Source: Escherichia phage UPEC01. From it: a DNA stretch of 64,000 bases. This document shows, in pieces, positions 6,358 through 51,278 of the stretch. Where the stretch lies: sequence record MW233709; one strand, 5' to 3'. Below the pieces are notes generated by a model that was given only the letters and a program-made list of their open reading frames with translations, was not told where the DNA came from and made no database searches. Made by a program: the position numbers and the translations under genes. Positions within the stretch are counted from its first letter, which is position 1. Each line of letters begins with the position of its first letter.

Positions 6358-6900
6358 ATGAAAAAAGTAATCGCCACCTTACTATTGACAGTTAGTATGT
6401 CTGCCCATAGCGTAGAGCCTACTTTCAGTAATGAACAGATGGAAAATCTTCAATATGCTTATGCGTTTGGAGAACAGTTCCAGAAAAATGGTAAGTACAA
6501 AGAAAATCCGCACCAACATAATGGTTTGGGATATATCATGGCTGGTTTAACCTGGCAGGAATCATCTGCTGGTGTTAATACAGGATTAAATAAAGATAAG
6601 CATCATGCATATGGTATATTCCAAAATTATCTTCCAACCGTGCGCGCGCGCGTAAAACAGGTTGGGTGGACAATGACAGATAAAGAAATAATCAAGATGA
6701 TAAGCAAGAGAGAGAACAGTGCACGCTGGGCTTATATTGAGTTTTCATACTGGTTAAACATTCACAAGGGGGACATAAGAAAAACACTATCATCATATAA
6801 CGCAGGGTGGAATGTGAAAGCTGGAAATACGTATGCTTCGCAAGTCCTAGAAAAAGCTAACTACTTAAAATCACGAGGCCTATTAAAAACGGTGGATTAA
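6358..6900 (+). CDS. secreted lytic-transglycosylase-like protein (candidate)
   Basis: N-terminal signal peptide MKKVIATLLLTVSMSAHS; SLT-like motifs TWQESSAG, GIFQ, SYNAGWN. Confidence 0.55.
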   Translation: MKKVIATLLLTVSMSAHSVEPTFSNEQMENLQYAYAFGEQFQKNGKYKENPHQHNGLGYIMAGLTWQESSAGVNTGLNKDKHHAYGIFQNYLPTVRARVKQVGWTMTDKEIIKMISKRENSARWAYIEFSYWLNIHKGDIRKTLSSYNAGWNVKAGNTYASQVLEKANYLKSRGLLKTVD

Positions 6901-7260
6901 ATGGTAAGAGTCATAACTTTAGCCATAGGGTTAGTATTCAGCACGGGAGGAATAGCTTCAGTACAGAGCGATGACAATAATAGCATCATAGAATATGCAA
7001 CGAGGACGGCCAAAGATTATTGCGCATCAAGCAATGTGGATTGTGTAATCCGGTTCAGTGCCAAGCTCACCGCGGCATATAAAGACGGTCAAAATGATGT
7101 TGAACACACTCTTATGAAAAAGAGCACTTTATCCAACAAATATGAAAAGAAACTATTTGAAATGGATTGTATTCTGTCGAGTGCCAAATATAAAGCGGCC
7201 TGCACCAGTATGGTTGACAGGTTAGTCGATTCCTATAACAGAGGATTGAACTCTAAATGA
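6901..7260 (+). CDS. secreted Cys-containing hypothetical protein
   Basis: Signal-peptide-like N-terminus MVRVITLAIGLVFSTGGIASV; four Cys. Confidence 0.5.
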   Translation: MVRVITLAIGLVFSTGGIASVQSDDNNSIIEYATRTAKDYCASSNVDCVIRFSAKLTAAYKDGQNDVEHTLMKKSTLSNKYEKKLFEMDCILSSAKYKAACTSMVDRLVDSYNRGLNSK

Positions 7261-7721
7261 TTGTTAACTATATTAAGGGCGATATTGTCGCCCTTTTTCT
7301 CGAAGGAAACATCATAGCTCATGGCTGTAACTGCTTCCATACAATGGGTTCAGGCGTTGCTGGCCAACTGGCAAAGGCTTACCCAAAAATTTTAGAAATG
7401 GATAAGACAACAACTGAATACGGTTCCCGAGAAAAACTCGGTGATATGTCTATTGTTTTTAAACATAAGCCAACTGGATTTGGTATGTGCTATAACCTTT
7501 ATACCCAGTATGAACCGGGTCCAAATCTGGATTATGGCGCTTTAGTAAATTGTATGATAGAATTAAATCTACAAGCAGAAACCCTTTTGTTTAAACCGGT
7601 AATTTATATTCCCAGGATTGGCTGTGGTATTGCAGGTGGTGATTGGGATAAGGTTTCCCGGTTAATTGATATGTTTACTCCTGATATTGATTTGATAGTG
7701 GTGGATTATGAGTCAAACTAG
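7257..7721 (+). CDS. macro-domain-like protein (candidate ADP-ribose binding/hydrolase)
   Basis: Motifs GDIV, AHGCNCFHTMGSGVAGQL and IGCGIAGGDWDKV resemble macro-domain signatures. Confidence 0.45.
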   Translation: MIVNYIKGDIVALFLEGNIIAHGCNCFHTMGSGVAGQLAKAYPKILEMDKTTTEYGSREKLGDMSIVFKHKPTGFGMCYNLYTQYEPGPNLDYGALVNCMIELNLQAETLLFKPVIYIPRIGCGIAGGDWDKVSRLIDMFTPDIDLIVVDYESN

Positions 7722-39850: not shown

Positions 39851-41274
39851 AAACTATTTTATCCCAGCTACTCTTTAACAAGGAATATTTTGTTAAAGTC
39901 TGGCCATATCTGAATAACACATATTTTGAAAAGGGTCCAGCAAAGACCCTTTTTAATACGATTAACGAACACGTAAAAGAATATCAAGCGGTACCAACTA
40001 AGACTGCACTTGATATCGCGCTCGACAGTTCTGACCTTTCTGAAGTCGAATATGAAGGCACAAAGAAACTCTTAGGAGTCCTGGCCGATACTCCAGAAGA
40101 CCAGGAATGGTTGGTTAAAGAAACCGAGAAGTATGTACAGAAGTCTGCGATGTTCAATGCCACATCCAGGATTATCGAAATCCAGAGCAATGCCGAACTT
40201 CCGAAAGATAAACGTGATAAACGAATCCCGGATATTGGTGCTATCCCTGACATCATGCGCGATGCATTGTCTATCTGTTTTGACTCTGCTCTGGGCCATG
40301 ACTGGTTAAACGATTACGAAGCTCGATTCCAGACTTATCTGAACAAATCGAAGAAGGTTCCGTTCCGTATTAACATCCTGAATAAAATCACGAAGGGCGG
40401 GGTTGAGTACGGTACAGAGAACGTTTTACTGGCCGGGACGAACGTCGGCAAATCCCTTGGACTTTGTTCGCTGGCGGCTGACTATCTTCAGACTGGTCAT
40501 AATGTGCTTTATATAAGCATGGAAATGGCTGAAGAAGTATGTGCCAAACGTATTGATGCCAACTTGCTGGATGTGTCTCTGGATGATATTGATGAAGGTC
40601 ATGTGTCATGGGCGGAATACAAAAGTAAGATGGAAAAATGGCGTGCAGCCGGGACCCTTGGGACTCTGAAGATAAAACAATATCCAACTGGCGGTGCTCA
40701 TGCGGATACCTTCCGTGCATTGCTGAATGAATACAAACTGAAGCAAGGGTTTGTGCCGGATGTGATTATTGTTGACTACCTGGCAATCTGTGCAAGCTCA
40801 AGACTGAAAACGTTTACCGAAAACAGTTACGGCCTGATTAAGATGGTTGCAGAAGAACTTCGTGGTCTGGCGGTCGAGAAAAATGTGGTCCTGTGGACTG
40901 CAGCGCAGACAACCAGGGGTGCGAACGTTGCAGCTGAGATTGATATGGCTGACATCGCTGAATCTTTTGGTATTGCTCACACGGCCGACTTTATGTTGGG
41001 TGTTGTTGAGACCGAAGAATTCGCTCAAATGGGACTACAGTTAATCAAACAGCTTAAGTCTCGTTACGGCGATAAGAACTACTATAATAAATTCAAGATG
41101 GGTGTTAAGAAAGGTAATCAGCGCTGGTACGAGGTTGATGATGATTCAGCTCCTAAACAAGGCCCTACGGTTAAAGAAGCCACTGGTGAGATGAATCGCC
41201 AGGCTGAAATGAATAGACAAACCAGGGTCAACAGGAGCGACCTGGACGACCTTGCTGCTCAAATGAAATTCTAA
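39844..41274 (+). CDS. 41: replicative DNA helicase gp41 (DnaB-like; GTG start)
   Basis: GTG 39844 gives MVETILSQLLF matching recalled T4 gp41 N-terminus; Walker A GTNVGKS. Confidence 0.94.
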   Translation: MVETILSQLLFNKEYFVKVWPYLNNTYFEKGPAKTLFNTINEHVKEYQAVPTKTALDIALDSSDLSEVEYEGTKKLLGVLADTPEDQEWLVKETEKYVQKSAMFNATSRIIEIQSNAELPKDKRDKRIPDIGAIPDIMRDALSICFDSALGHDWLNDYEARFQTYLNKSKKVPFRINILNKITKGGVEYGTENVLLAGTNVGKSLGLCSLAADYLQTGHNVLYISMEMAEEVCAKRIDANLLDVSLDDIDEGHVSWAEYKSKMEKWRAAGTLGTLKIKQYPTGGAHADTFRALLNEYKLKQGFVPDVIIVDYLAICASSRLKTFTENSYGLIKMVAEELRGLAVEKNVVLWTAAQTTRGANVAAEIDMADIAESFGIAHTADFMLGVVETEEFAQMGLQLIKQLKSRYGDKNYYNKFKMGVKKGNQRWYEVDDDSAPKQGPTVKEATGEMNRQAEMNRQTRVNRSDLDDLAAQMKF

Positions 41275-41296
41275 AGACCTTCGGGTCTTTTTCATT
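41274..41296 (+). terminator. rho-independent terminator
   Basis: AAGACC-TTCG-GGTCTT then T-run. Confidence 0.6.
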
Positions 41297-41301
41297 TAGA
41301 G

Positions 41302-41362
41302 GTTTACAACACCATAAAAAGGGTGTACTATTATCCCATCAACTACTGATGAGGATAATAAA
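41302..41362 (+). promoter_or_regulatory. early promoter cassette with CAACTACTGATGAGGA leader
   Basis: GTTTACAAC, GGGTGTACTATTAT, ATCCCATCAACTACTGATGAGGATAATAAA. Confidence 0.5.
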
Positions 41363-41611
41363 ATGTTATTAGTTAATGTGCAGTACCAGTTCAAATCTGA
41401 AGAAGCTCTCCAAAAGTATGCTGATATTTGTGAGCATAATAAAAGAACAGCTGCCATTGTTGGTCTGAAGCCTTTTAAAATTTTGGATTGCTCCTTGAAC
41501 AGAGCAAGACGCTGGTGTAGTGTTGCCTGTCATGCTTCAGTTGAAGGGAATGATTATTTTTTCATTACTTTCAATGCACAAGATTTTCATTTAATTAATG
41601 AATTAAAATAG
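41363..41611 (+). CDS. hypothetical protein
   Basis: ATG after cassette leader. Confidence 0.5.
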   Translation: MLLVNVQYQFKSEEALQKYADICEHNKRTAAIVGLKPFKILDCSLNRARRWCSVACHASVEGNDYFFITFNAQDFHLINELK

Positions 41612-41689: not shown

Positions 41690-41992
41690 ATGTTTAATCA
41701 AACCGATATGAACCGTTACTATTTTGGTCAGTTCGCTCGCCGTGATGAAAACTGTGCTGCTCTTATCGCATCAGGCATTCAAACTGGTAAATTAATAAAG
41801 CTCAAAAGCGATGTTCAACCTTCATCTGTTCGCAGCTCTCTTCGTGAGTATCTGCTTGCAGGCGGGGCAGTATATGTTATCGCTGAACCTTTTGTTAACG
41901 TGTGCGACGATTACACAATTAGTGTGACTGTTATGCACCCAACTACTGGGAAAATTCGTTGTCTGACTATGCACAACTATGAGTTGGCGTAA
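41690..41992 (+). CDS. hypothetical protein
   Basis: Intact ORF. Confidence 0.5.
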   Translation: MFNQTDMNRYYFGQFARRDENCAALIASGIQTGKLIKLKSDVQPSSVRSSLREYLLAGGAVYVIAEPFVNVCDDYTISVTVMHPTTGKIRCLTMHNYELA

Positions 41993-42000
41993 GTGAATAA

Positions 42001-42060
42001 AGGGGCTTACAGCCCCTTTTTCTTATGTTATAATGACTCTATCAACTACTGGAGAATAAA
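42001..42060 (+). promoter_or_regulatory. terminator-like hairpin fused to early promoter cassette
   Basis: AGGGGC-TTAC-AGCCCCT + T-run; GTTATAATG; leader CTATCAACTACTGGAG. Confidence 0.45.
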
Positions 42061-42378
42061 ATGAAAACCATTGATTGCAAGGCAGAATACAAAGTTTATT
42101 ATCATGGGTCAAGTTCTAATGCTGGAATCCAAAATATGCTTTGTCCTCCTGATGCAACTGGTGTTCTGTCAGAAGTTGGGCGTAAGAAAAATTTAGGGCG
42201 TGTGTTTTTTACTGAAGATATTGGTTTGGCGCGTATCTATGCAGGAAGAGCAGCTCGCTCATATGGAGGAGAACCCCGTCTTTATCGTGTGATTGCACCT
42301 GTTGACGTGGTTTGTTTAAATGATACTAAAGGCGCAACAGTTTATCACGCTGACTGGGCCTTCTGTGAGGAAATCTAA
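42061..42378 (+). CDS. hypothetical protein with PARP-like H-G-S motif (possible minimal ADP-ribosyltransferase fold)
   Basis: YYHGSSSNAGI resembles PARP HGSRTTNFAGI; RVFFTED resembles GIYFAD; only 105 aa. Confidence 0.5.
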   Translation: MKTIDCKAEYKVYYHGSSSNAGIQNMLCPPDATGVLSEVGRKKNLGRVFFTEDIGLARIYAGRAARSYGGEPRLYRVIAPVDVVCLNDTKGATVYHADWAFCEEI

Positions 42379-42582
42379 ATGTATAAATTAGAGAACGTAG
42401 TATTTATTGGTTGGTTTGAAAATGGTAATATGTTTACCAAAGAAACCGCGCTGGATGTCAGTGACAAAAATATGATTGAATGGGTTACAGTGCAGTATGC
42501 GGAAGTGAATAATGCGCTGGTTAAAGCCTTTGTTAATGACAATAAAGTTTTTGAATATGATGCCCGCATTGAGGAAATCTAA
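42379..42582 (+). CDS. hypothetical protein (paralogue of 42583 gene)
   Basis: Shares NALVKAFVNDNKV with next ORF; repeated junction GAGGAAATCTAAATG. Confidence 0.5.
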   Translation: MYKLENVVFIGWFENGNMFTKETALDVSDKNMIEWVTVQYAEVNNALVKAFVNDNKVFEYDARIEEI

Positions 42583-42924
42583 ATGACTTTTAATCCAGAA
42601 GACCGCGTAAAAGTAACAATCAAAGTGAGTGCCGTTGGCGTTCCATCTTTTGAGCGCTCAAGTATGTTCCATCCCGCAGGTATTCACTGGTATGTTCAGA
42701 AGACTGCTGATAACTATAATGCGCTGGTTGAAGCTTTTGTTGATGACAAGCTAATTCATAAAGTAGACATGCGTAAGGGTACTGCATTGCGTAATCTGAT
42801 TTTGACCGTTGAAGCGCAACTGGTAAATGAAGAAATCTGCCTTACTGATATTGAAGCAGCTCTTCATATTGCACGTGCTGAATATTACAAATTGACTGGT
42901 TTTTCAGTTGAAGGTGAAAAATAA
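42583..42924 (+). CDS. hypothetical protein (paralogue of 42379 gene)
   Basis: YNALVEAFVDDKLIHKV; repeated junction. Confidence 0.5.
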   Translation: MTFNPEDRVKVTIKVSAVGVPSFERSSMFHPAGIHWYVQKTADNYNALVEAFVDDKLIHKVDMRKGTALRNLILTVEAQLVNEEICLTDIEAALHIARAEYYKLTGFSVEGEK

Positions 42925-42982
42925 GTGTACATCAAAGGGGTAATGCAGTATATTATCCCTATCAACTACTGAGGAGATTGAA
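42925..42982 (+). promoter_or_regulatory. early promoter cassette
   Basis: GTGTACAT, TATATTAT, CCCTATCAACTACTGAGGAG. Confidence 0.5.
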
Positions 42983-48222: not shown

Positions 48223-48711
48223 ATGAAAGTATATGAATTAGAATTCTATGTCCGTGATTCTGCTGGGCAAACACGACCTTACGATGCAACAGCCTGTCTT
48301 ATCTTTGCATATAATGGCATGGATTCGGTTACTGAGTTGGAAACAAAATTAATGAACCTGACGATGCCAGAAAACGTTATGCTGAAGGTATTTCATAGAA
48401 AAAACGTTAATGTGGCTGAAGGGTGTCCGTTTACTGTTTCCGAAGCTCTGCATATCAAAGGCTATCGTCACCCGGACCCATATGCAGAAGGTACTGCGGA
48501 TATTTTCTATAAAGATAGAGATAAAATGGCCACTGAACGTCTCCAAGGTCGCACATATCTGATTTCCACTACCGACGACCTTGCTGAAGTTGAACGTCAG
48601 ATTTGGAAGCACTTTGATATCGGCTTGCGCTTTACTTTAACAGAAGAAGCTATTCAAGATACTAAAATGCGTGCTCGTATGTATGGTTACGGTCCTATCG
48701 GTGGCTACTAA
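48223..48711 (+). CDS. hypothetical protein (Mrh position)
   Basis: Position between soc and Mod-like genes; sequence identity not verified. Confidence 0.5.
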
Positions 48712-49176: not shown

Positions 49177-49737
49177 ATGAACATCATCAAATCTGATACC
49201 GAACCCAACCAGTTAAAATTTAGTGAAATGGAGATAGCTTCATTATTTGAATGCCGTACATCAAAGGTTGATAAAACCTTGCATTCAAACATCAACTCAA
49301 TTATCAAGCCAAGGTTGTCTATACCCGATACAGTCTTGTGGCGCGGGGTAACCCAGCAAGAGATTGATTTGTTAGATGAAGCAAAAGAATCAATGCAACC
49401 TTTTGAATTTGGACGGATAACCTCCTTTACAGAAGACTATGGTATTGCCAGGGATTTTGCTGCAATGGAATATGCATCAAGGACTATCGTCAGATTGAAT
49501 CAGACAAAAGCTTTTTGTTACCATGATGCGATGCGCAAAATCGCGCTTGATGTTCCGCTGGAATTCTTCAATACAGTTTCTGGTTCCGAACAGGCAGCAA
49601 CGTTAAGACGTGAAGAATACATGGACATGATTGATTCTGAGCTTGAATGGTTTGTTCCAGTTGACCAGAAATTCGTGGTGGTTGATGCTGGATTTGTTGG
49701 TGATTATTATGTTCTTGACTGTGTACAAGAGCAATAA
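49177..49737 (+). CDS. ADP-ribosyltransferase (ModB-like by order)
   Basis: R-S-E-type ART motifs: LWRGV, SFT, ELEW. Confidence 0.65.
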   Translation: MNIIKSDTEPNQLKFSEMEIASLFECRTSKVDKTLHSNINSIIKPRLSIPDTVLWRGVTQQEIDLLDEAKESMQPFEFGRITSFTEDYGIARDFAAMEYASRTIVRLNQTKAFCYHDAMRKIALDVPLEFFNTVSGSEQAATLRREEYMDMIDSELEWFVPVDQKFVVVDAGFVGDYYVLDCVQEQ

Positions 49738-49781
49738 GACACGTTAAGATGCTCCTATCAACTACTGATGAGGATAATAAA
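49721..49781 (+). promoter_or_regulatory. early promoter cassette overlapping 3' end of upstream ART gene
   Basis: GTGTACAA 49721-49728, GTTAAGATG, CTCCTATCAACTACTGATGAGGA. Confidence 0.45.
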
Positions 49782-50396
49782 ATGCTGTACACTGATGACG
49801 TTTTGAATGGAATTATTGACACTGCCGCTTCTAGTGAGTCTTTTCGTGACCAATGTCAAGCAGAGATTGATGCTCTTTATACAGATAATGAGCAATCAGT
49901 ACTCTGGCAGTGTATGGAAAATAAACCTGACCTGATTCAAGAAGACTTAACCAGGATTATCCGCAACAATCTGAATACTACACCGCCGGCAGCGTTGTTC
50001 CGCGGTATATCAAAGAAAACCATGGAATACCTGGAAGATTTAAGATATGTTGGTGCGACAATTGAGTTCAACCGTGTGATGAGTTTTTCCAGAGACTGGC
50101 AGGTTGCAAGAAATTTCGCATCATATAGTTTCTATGGCACAAGGAATATTTTCTGCATAAACAATGCACCTTATGCGTATAACTATCAGGAAGCAATCTT
50201 TAAAATGATTTGCGGTGCTCCTCCTGAAGAGTTCAATGGTGCATATCCAGAAGCAACCAGGAAGTCAAACTTACACCTAGTTAATGATGAGGATGAGTTT
50301 ATGTTTCCCGCTGGGACTACGCTTCGCGTAGATTTGATTGAGAAACACCCATTGAATAACCTTTATACTGTTTGGCATTTGACTGTTTTGAACTAA
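49782..50396 (+). CDS. ADP-ribosyltransferase (ModA-like by order)
   Basis: LFRGI, SFSRD, DEDEF; ORF-track start lies inside promoter leader. Confidence 0.65.
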   Translation: MLYTDDVLNGIIDTAASSESFRDQCQAEIDALYTDNEQSVLWQCMENKPDLIQEDLTRIIRNNLNTTPPAALFRGISKKTMEYLEDLRYVGATIEFNRVMSFSRDWQVARNFASYSFYGTRNIFCINNAPYAYNYQEAIFKMICGAPPEEFNGAYPEATRKSNLHLVNDEDEFMFPAGTTLRVDLIEKHPLNNLYTVWHLTVLN

Positions 50397-50531: not shown

Positions 50532-51278
50532 ATGACTTTATCAAAAACCAAAACGCTGAAAGTTAAACGTCGCCTGGAACACACTCAAGCTTCTGCTAAA
50601 CGTCGTGGTAAGGACTTTAACCTGGATTTCAATTACCTGGTTAACATTCTTGACCAAAAAGTTTGTGCTTATTCTGGTGAAGCATTTAATAACTCTATTG
50701 AAGACGAGAAGTTATCATTAGAACGTTTTAACAATGATATTGGTTATATCAAGGGTAATGTTATTCCTGTTAAAAAGAAATACAATACCATGCGTTCTGA
50801 TTGGTCCTTGGATGAGCTTAAACAACGTCGCGATGATGTTGCTGTAAAAATTGCTCGCCCCTCTGCCAAGAAGATTGAAAAGTTAAATCTGACTTCAGAG
50901 AAATGGGAACAGATTAAAAAGTCATATACTCATATCAAGAACATCCAGCACAAACGTGATAATCGCGTTAAGCATTATGCTCAAATGAGTAAATCAGAGC
51001 AGTCCAAAGAAAACCAATTAAAAATGGTTGCTCTGAAGGCTCGCATTGATGGTTCCCGTGTTGCGGAAGGACATGAGCTTACTAAATTGAATGTCCTGCT
51101 CAAAGGTAATGACTGGAAAGTTACCAAGAAATTAACTGATGCTGAAACGCTTTTTGATTGCTATGATAAAATCATTCAAGGTCTTGAGCGTTTTGAGAAG
51201 ATTGGTTTTATTGGTAAATTAAAACTGAAACGTGGTCTGCCTTTGAACGCGTCAATTTTTAAACTGATTAGAGGTTAA
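50532..51278 (+). CDS. hypothetical basic protein (Srd position)
   Basis: 248 aa between Mod-like genes and dda; LSLERFNNDIGYIKGNV resembles a degenerate HNH-like segment. Confidence 0.5.
   Translation: MTLSKTKTLKVKRRLEHTQASAKRRGKDFNLDFNYLVNILDQKVCAYSGEAFNNSIEDEKLSLERFNNDIGYIKGNVIPVKKKYNTMRSDWSLDELKQRRDDVAVKIARPSAKKIEKLNLTSEKWEQIKKSYTHIKNIQHKRDNRVKHYAQMSKSEQSKENQLKMVALKARIDGSRVAEGHELTKLNVLLKGNDWKVTKKLTDAETLFDCYDKIIQGLERFEKIGFIGKLKLKRGLPLNASIFKLIRG

Follow-up and report, generated by a model that had tools for sequence, protein, structure and literature searches.

A predicted minimal Arr-like ADP-ribosyltransferase of T4-like phages, with a proposed early role

[quoted passage not shown] The enzyme to which it is most closely related, Arr, relies on an H19/Y49/D84 triad and has a C-terminal helix, alpha-2, that caps the rifampin cleft (PMC8120803). 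Active ARTs that lack the canonical glutamate are on record: the acid is D84 in Arr and D115 in AcrIF11, and Tpt1 is a member of the H-H-h clade; AcrIF11 (H7/F26/H37/D115) is in addition a precedent for phenylalanine replacing the first tyrosine in an active enzyme (PMC8120803). Among viral ARTs, Iyer et al. 2022 (PMC9503650) described a 'p0068-like' family of the HY-[EDQ] clade, counted it among the most frequent, and noted that it adjoins Dmd in phages of Escherichia, Shigella and Salmonella, where a 'p0068-family ART + Dmd' toxin-antitoxin module was proposed. In clade, frequency and Dmd neighbor this account fits the locus described below and its spread across 609 phage records, a match made by description only; the p0068 label occurs neither in the locus tags of SP18 or JS10 nor in the polyvalent-protein paper. 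The ART prediction for the family is already public, and ours is an uncharacterized member of it. GenBank lists orthologs as 'putative ADP-ribosyl transferase' in Acinetobacter phages Konradin, DLP1 and Kimel and in Pantoea phage Phynn, and as 'rifampin ADP-ribosyl transferase' in Klebsiella phage KLB25; no experimental or biochemical work on any family member was found in the literature searched.

The gene lies in a 64-kb stretch of DNA, analyzed as a whole and referred to here as the window, in a region that encodes UvsX, gp40, the gp41 helicase, a run of small ORFs and the gp61 primase. This region shares 99.6% identity with Escherichia virus TH41 and 96-98% with VR20, SP18 (classified as Gaprivervirus) and phage 212. 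The ART gene occupies an interval of variable content flanked by genes 41 and 61, which in T4 holds dmd, 61.4, sp, 61.2 and 61.1. Both tifA and adfA map to this interval as well. tifA is a counter-defence gene of T4-like phages (PMC10853763). The features to which we refer are as follows.

41363-41611, + strand: goF-like mRNA-metabolism modulator (phrog_2980, E 4.5e-20)
41690-41992, + strand: 100-aa ORF of unknown function (phrog_17014)
41999-42019, + strand: predicted terminator, a GC-rich hairpin followed by a T-run, closing the upstream unit (terminator scan)
42006-42034, + strand: predicted sigma-70 early-type promoter, CTTACA-17-TATAAT with extended -10 TG (a consensus match only)
42051-42055, + strand: Shine-Dalgarno GGAGA, 5 nt 5' of the ATG (read from the sequence)
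42061-42378, + strand: CDS of the minimal Arr-like ADP-ribosyltransferase, 105 aa (phrog_2110)
42103-42111, + strand: codons of H15-G16-S17, the strand-1 NAD-binding motif (conserved in 262 sequences; aligned to Arr 'LHGT')
42205-42240, + strand: codons of F49 to Y60, comprising strand 2 (VFFT) and the start of the next helix and ending on Y60
42379-42582, + strand: dmd, antitoxin-like inhibitor of RnlA/LsoA (phrog_2102, E 1.1e-33; annotated dmd in relatives)
42583-42924, + strand: Dmd-like paralog, extended, 113 aa, last gene of the coupled string (phrog_23762, E 3e-65)
49177-49737 and 49749-50396, + strand: two Mod-like genes (phrog_832 'RNA polymerase ADP-ribosylase', E 6e-27 and 1e-38)

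As first described, the ORF at 42061-42378 on the + strand contains YYHGSSSNAGI (residues 13-23) and RVFFTED (residues 47-53), and in the translation of the 64-kb window its 105-aa product reads MKTIDCKAEYKVYYHGSSSNAGIQ...RVFFTEDIGLARIYAGRA...FCEEI. It is a real gene and not a chance ORF, as indicated by its ribosome binding site and promoter match, an end-to-end match to phrog_2110 ('unknown function', E 1.3e-58), its homologs, its recurrence across phage records and its substitution pattern. We found 115 homologs of 52-98% identity and roughly 80-139 aa (most 96-112), phage VR20 carries a gene that is 100% identical, and tblastn recovered the ART gene in 609 phage records (Escherichia 215, Klebsiella 116, Acinetobacter 68, Aeromonas 62, and others). 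Pairwise dN/dS against diverged orthologs (60-82% DNA identity) ranges from 0.09 to 0.22, and the gene is under purifying selection. With 10 of 12 consensus matches plus the TG, the putative promoter is the top-scoring site between 41200 and 43300 and is predicted to drive the string formed by the ART gene, dmd and the dmd-like gene. Its -35 element is overlapped by the terminator hairpin, for which the scan gives a 9-bp stem with 5 GC pairs, a 3-nt loop and a T tail. Similar terminator/promoter units occur near 41273-41331 and 42926-42954, and several small modules of the interval have a promoter-like site of their own. The 41999-42034 unit resembles the 'promoter-early stem-loop' shuffling cassettes that Arbiol et al. 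2010 reportedly described in T4-type phages.

Downstream, the ATG of dmd abuts the ART stop codon (TAAATG), and dmd is in turn followed by an ORF that matches the Dmd profile over residues 30-65 (E 8.8e-6) and forms a family of its own, phrog_23762; from its sequence, this product looks like a second, C-terminally extended Dmd paralog. Shigella phage SP18 lacks it and has sp directly after dmd. The 15-mer GAGGAAATCTAAATG, which comprises a Shine-Dalgarno element, '...EEI' codons, a stop and an ATG, lies at 42367-42381 and again at 42571-42585. It occurs exactly twice in the 64-kb window (chance expectation 0.01) and marks both the ART/dmd and the dmd/dmd-like junctions, so that the 204-bp dmd has a direct repeat at either end, which may be the trace of a cassette gained or lost by microhomology. 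Upstream, the goF-like gene and the phrog_17014 ORF separate gene 41 from the ART gene, and together with the two Dmd-like genes they give the interval an mRNA-stability theme.

An exhaustive profile search extended the family by 242 relatives. In bacteria, a scan of 185,579 species genomes returned four loci, but since the scan relied on one narrow peptide pattern this near-absence is only suggestive. One of these copies, 70% identical to the ART, is on a 178,077-bp contig assigned to 'Flagellimonas marina' (NZ_JBHSCL010000010.1); the contig has the size of a T4-like phage, and the copy probably belongs to a co-assembled phage rather than being a chromosomal gene. Two homologs of about 48-49% identity come from candidate-phyla-radiation genomes, a Candidatus Kaiserbacteria MAG (L074, 5902-6348) and a Patescibacteria MAG (L075). 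The former is 148 aa long with an N-terminal extension and is followed by an ORF at 6433-7476 that, judged from its translation, is transposase-like.

Among the distant relatives, the core of about 95 residues is also embedded in phage proteins of 272-3924 aa, whereas the window copy is a solo gene. The partner domains include ART-PolyVal, NUDIX, a lambda-type portal with a 2H/Acb1-like phosphoesterase, GNAT with Toprim, DUF7178 and PhageMin_Tail, and with these large multidomain phage proteins the domain belongs to the 'polyvalent', virion-delivered effector pattern (PMC5512222, PMC9503650). In the tape-measure-like protein P0130 (3924 aa), PhageMin_Tail spans 143-352 and the ART domain 599-696; in P0148 (954 aa), the ART domain sits between the lambda-type portal domain and the 2H/Acb1-like phosphoesterase. 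Either layout implies that the domain is physically carried in with the virion.

The first-pass annotation had read the H-G-S motif as PARP-like and raised the possibility of a minimal ART fold. Foldseek, profile comparison and conservation bear out the fold but put Arr, not PARP, nearest. An AlphaFold2 model built from a 42-sequence alignment (pLDDT 85.3, pTM 0.77) has the element order strand, short helices, strand, long helix and then four strands, with no helix beyond residue 68, and shows that the 105-aa protein has the split beta-sheet of the ART fold. When the model was compared with the PDB by Foldseek, a single confident match was obtained, Arr 9IAF (probability 1.00, TM 0.61), and the ART fold thus withstood the structural check. 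Matches outside the family in BFVD include a 94-aa phage 'Rifampin ADP-ribosyl transferase' (TM 0.70) and a PcfJ-like protein. Membership of the PARP family was considered and rejected on weak PARP structural scores and the lack of any sequence signal.

At the level of sequence the kinship to Arr is distant. Taken alone, the 105-aa protein matches nothing in Pfam (E up to 10), NCBIfam or PADLOC, and a profile of the T4-like members alone matches no PDB sequence; the link surfaced only once distant relatives from the exhaustive search had joined the profile, the extended version of which reaches Arr 2HW2/9IAF in the PDB at E 0.007. Pfam PF12120 (Arr-ms) is matched at E up to 1 by 23 of 33 family members (best E 2.2e-8), and the longer relatives P0126, P0143 and P0124 score 27.5, 29.4 and 26.9 bits against a cut-off of 25 bits; the window protein falls below the Pfam gathering threshold. 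Aligned by hhalign with 24 genuine Arr sequences, residues 9-84 cover Arr residues 14-83 (95.9%, E 5.5e-9), with H15 on Arr H19 and F49 on Arr Y49. RVFFTED, which had been likened to the strand following the motif in PARPs, is borne out in that F49 falls on a residue of the Arr catalytic triad. The near-invariant Arr motif 'EDDPN', which includes D84, has no aligned counterpart, as both the hhalign and the HMM alignments end at Arr 82-83, and helix alpha-2 likewise has none, the 105-aa protein ending about 38 residues short of Arr's 143. Because the alignment ends before D84 and alpha-2 is missing, we regard the family as a sister of Arr and not as its ortholog.

To follow individual residues we used an alignment of 262 sequences, comprising the 115 T4-like members and 147 distant representatives. 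Wherever a sequence extends over these columns, H15 and G16 are kept, the sole exception being one tyrosine at position 15, and residue 17 is always serine or threonine. Position 49 is phenylalanine in 253 sequences and tyrosine in 8, position 60 is tyrosine in 257 and phenylalanine in 3, position 63 is always arginine or lysine, and E38, R41, T51, A57, A61 and GG69-70 are near-invariant. The motif residues H15, G16, S/T17, F49 and Y60 are hence conserved far above chance. From the alignment, F49 and Y60 are expected to form the aromatic pair that sandwiches nicotinamide. In PARP1 (H862/Y896/Y907) the spacings of 34 and 11 are the same as those from H15 to F49 to Y60.

The catalytic acid is less straightforward. 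The topology of the model suggests that residue 93, the first of the penultimate strand, occupies the slot of PARP1 E988 and diphtheria-toxin E148, and in the 115 T4-like members it is threonine or serine apart from two glycines. With the canonical glutamate slot so filled, ART activity is not guaranteed, and a non-catalytic ART fold, that is, a pseudoenzyme or a 'sponge' holding on to NAD+ or to an immune signal derived from ADP-ribose but transferring nothing, would also be in keeping with a very small, single-domain protein whose conserved H, G, F and Y might serve ligand binding rather than chemistry. We nonetheless judge this unlikely: 24 distant members have glutamate or aspartate at the same slot, the active enzymes introduced above manage without the canonical residue, other acids are strongly kept (E38 in 254 of 262 sequences, E103 in 113 of 115 T4-like members) and the domain keeps company with enzymatic modules in polyvalent proteins. 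E38, D88 and E103 are candidate catalytic acids. A more specific but equally doubtful proposal is that the T4-like subfamily ADP-ribosylates a nucleic-acid phosphate (RNA or DNA ends, or a site in mRNA or tRNA) in a substrate-assisted manner, or sponges ADP-ribose-derived immune signals. A phosphate acceptor on nucleic acid is suggested by Thr/Ser93, by the Tpt1 NAD lobe as the closest in structure and by an invariant basic cluster, R41-K42-K43/R63; placed as it is within the string of goF-like, dmd and dmd-like genes, which has a theme of mRNA stability and counter-defence, such an enzyme could cap or mark RNA to evade host RNase toxins, RnlA/LsoA for example. If true, no smaller ART acting on nucleic acid would be known, and the counter-defence mechanism would be a new one for phages. 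True orthology with Arr, with rifamycin-type antibiotics or another small molecule as the substrate, might be expected from Arr being the closest characterized relative in both sequence and structure and from the annotation of the KLB25 record. We consider it very improbable given that the window protein scores under the Arr-ms threshold, its homology is limited to Arr residues 14-83, the alpha-2 cap and an aligned EDDPN are missing and W-G-A-E is replaced by I-Y-A-G; we also infer that strictly lytic T4-like phages, the carriers of the gene, would gain little from the antibiotic resistance of a host. As for the motif being a coincidence in a small protein with some other fold, a caveat of the first-pass annotation that the missing Pfam, NCBIfam and PDB sequence matches of the protein alone might have encouraged, it is effectively refuted by the convergence of structure, profile-profile and conservation evidence on the ART fold.

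The remaining alternative concerns the neighbor rather than the fold. An ART toxin with the adjacent Dmd as its cognate antitoxin, as in the module proposed by Iyer et al., is what the abutting stop and start codons and the recurrence of the ART-dmd order in Escherichia and Shigella phage lineages would lead one to expect. Yet of 72 ART loci only about 13 are followed by a Dmd-like gene, all of them from Escherichia or Shigella lineages. Elsewhere the downstream position is taken by periplasmic spackle (Yersinia phages), by a phrog_7619 peptide annotated as transmembrane and with a signal peptide (RB16 and Klebsiella phages), by a Cys-rich peptide of 41-46 aa (phrog_13952), by phrog_7668 (Aeromonas phages) or by nothing. 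Conversely, T4 has dmd directly after gene 41 and no ART in that interval. Back-to-back stop and start codons are also ordinary here, the dmd/dmd-like junction being identical. The ART gene itself changes position: RB16 and Klebsiella phages have it close to srd/rnlB, Aeromonas phages close to capsid genes. An obligate Dmd partner was rejected on the 72-locus neighborhood survey and the T4 interval. With neighbors this variable, and with the T4 arrangement, the pairing looks like a lineage-specific adjacency in a hyperplastic region and not an obligate module, and we find a toxin-antitoxin pair improbable.

The reading we favor, with rather better than even confidence, is that the gene encodes an early NAD+-dependent mono-ADP-ribosyltransferase of an Arr sister family that acts as a host-takeover or counter-defence effector; activity, timing and role are the predicted parts of this account. 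Transcription from the sigma-70 early promoter would begin right after infection, and the product would bind NAD+ with H15-G16-S17 of strand 1 and the aromatic residues F49 and Y60, then attach one ADP-ribose to a target in the host or in a defence system, aiding takeover or counter-defence much as T4 Alt/ModA/ModB or AcrIF11 do. The location of the gene between genes 41 and 61, adjoining dmd, whose product lets phages inhibit RNase toxins of the host, supports this reading, as do the 609 phage records set against four bacterial loci. The protein is a stand-alone counterpart of a domain that in other phages forms part of virion-delivered polyvalent, tape-measure or portal fusions, and it would not be an obligate toxin paired with Dmd. 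Reuse of the domain in virion-injected polyvalent proteins suggests that the ART acts in the first moments of infection. This fourth ART is present in at least 609 sequenced relatives, with hosts that include Escherichia, Klebsiella, Acinetobacter, Aeromonas and Vibrio. Its core of about 95 residues is near the minimum size of an ART and useful for defining the smallest scaffold for NAD+ binding and transfer. The gene is small, soluble-looking and easily tested, and the family is widespread, minimal and conceptually unsurprising; knowing its target could bring to light a host-takeover or anti-defence mechanism not yet described and settle the ART-Dmd toxin-antitoxin prediction.

Set against known systems, the protein is most like Arr (PF12120; 2HW2, 9IAF), which is also a small single-domain ART of the H-Y-[E/D/Q] clade, is homologous from strand 1 to strand 3 and has in common with it an E-x-G-R element between strands 1 and 2. 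It differs in being 105 rather than 143 aa long, in lacking the alpha-2 cap and in having phenylalanine for the triad tyrosine. Where the window protein has the classical helix tyrosine (Y60), Arr has glycine, and the helix residues W-G-A-E of Arr contrast with I-Y-A-G. The window protein is further set apart by an RKKN insertion of two residues and by an invariant GG, and is phage-borne and phage-restricted. Set beside Arr, or beside the 137-residue AcrIF11 chain 6KYF, the initial remark that a protein of 105 aa is much smaller than known ARTs proves overstated. AcrIF11 is likewise small and phage-encoded, with phenylalanine for the first tyrosine; it uses a non-Glu catalytic acid and serves in counter-defence, a role predicted for the window protein too (PMC8120803). 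It differs in that it targets Cas8f N250; no sequence homology between the two was detected, and nothing in this analysis ties the window protein to CRISPR.

PARP and diphtheria toxin are further removed, as none of their chains is among the sequence matches at E up to 10, and the window protein, at less than half their size, lacks the helical or regulatory domain, the acceptor loop and a glutamate at the E988/E148 slot. With Tpt1/KptA (9LD3, 7KW9) the match is confined to the NAD lobe, 75 residues aligning to a 179-residue chain. Tpt1/KptA carries an HG[ST] motif, and its canonical glutamate slot is similarly non-acidic, as in the H-H-h clade. Unlike it, the window protein is a single 105-aa domain without the N-terminal RNA-binding lobe, and with that lobe most of the Tpt1 R-H-R-R tetrad is missing. 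T4 Alt, ModA and ModB are, like the predicted effector, phage-encoded ARTs acting on host proteins during takeover, but they are of the R-S-E and not the H-Y-x clade, are about twice the size and have no sequence similarity to it. The distinction drawn at first sight from the R-S-E Mod-like enzymes at 49177-50396 was a sound one, as these are of the other clade and without sequence similarity. The two Mod-like genes sit between Mrh (48223-48711) and Srd (50532-51278), and the window thus holds at least three predicted ARTs, one of the H-Y type and two Mod-like.
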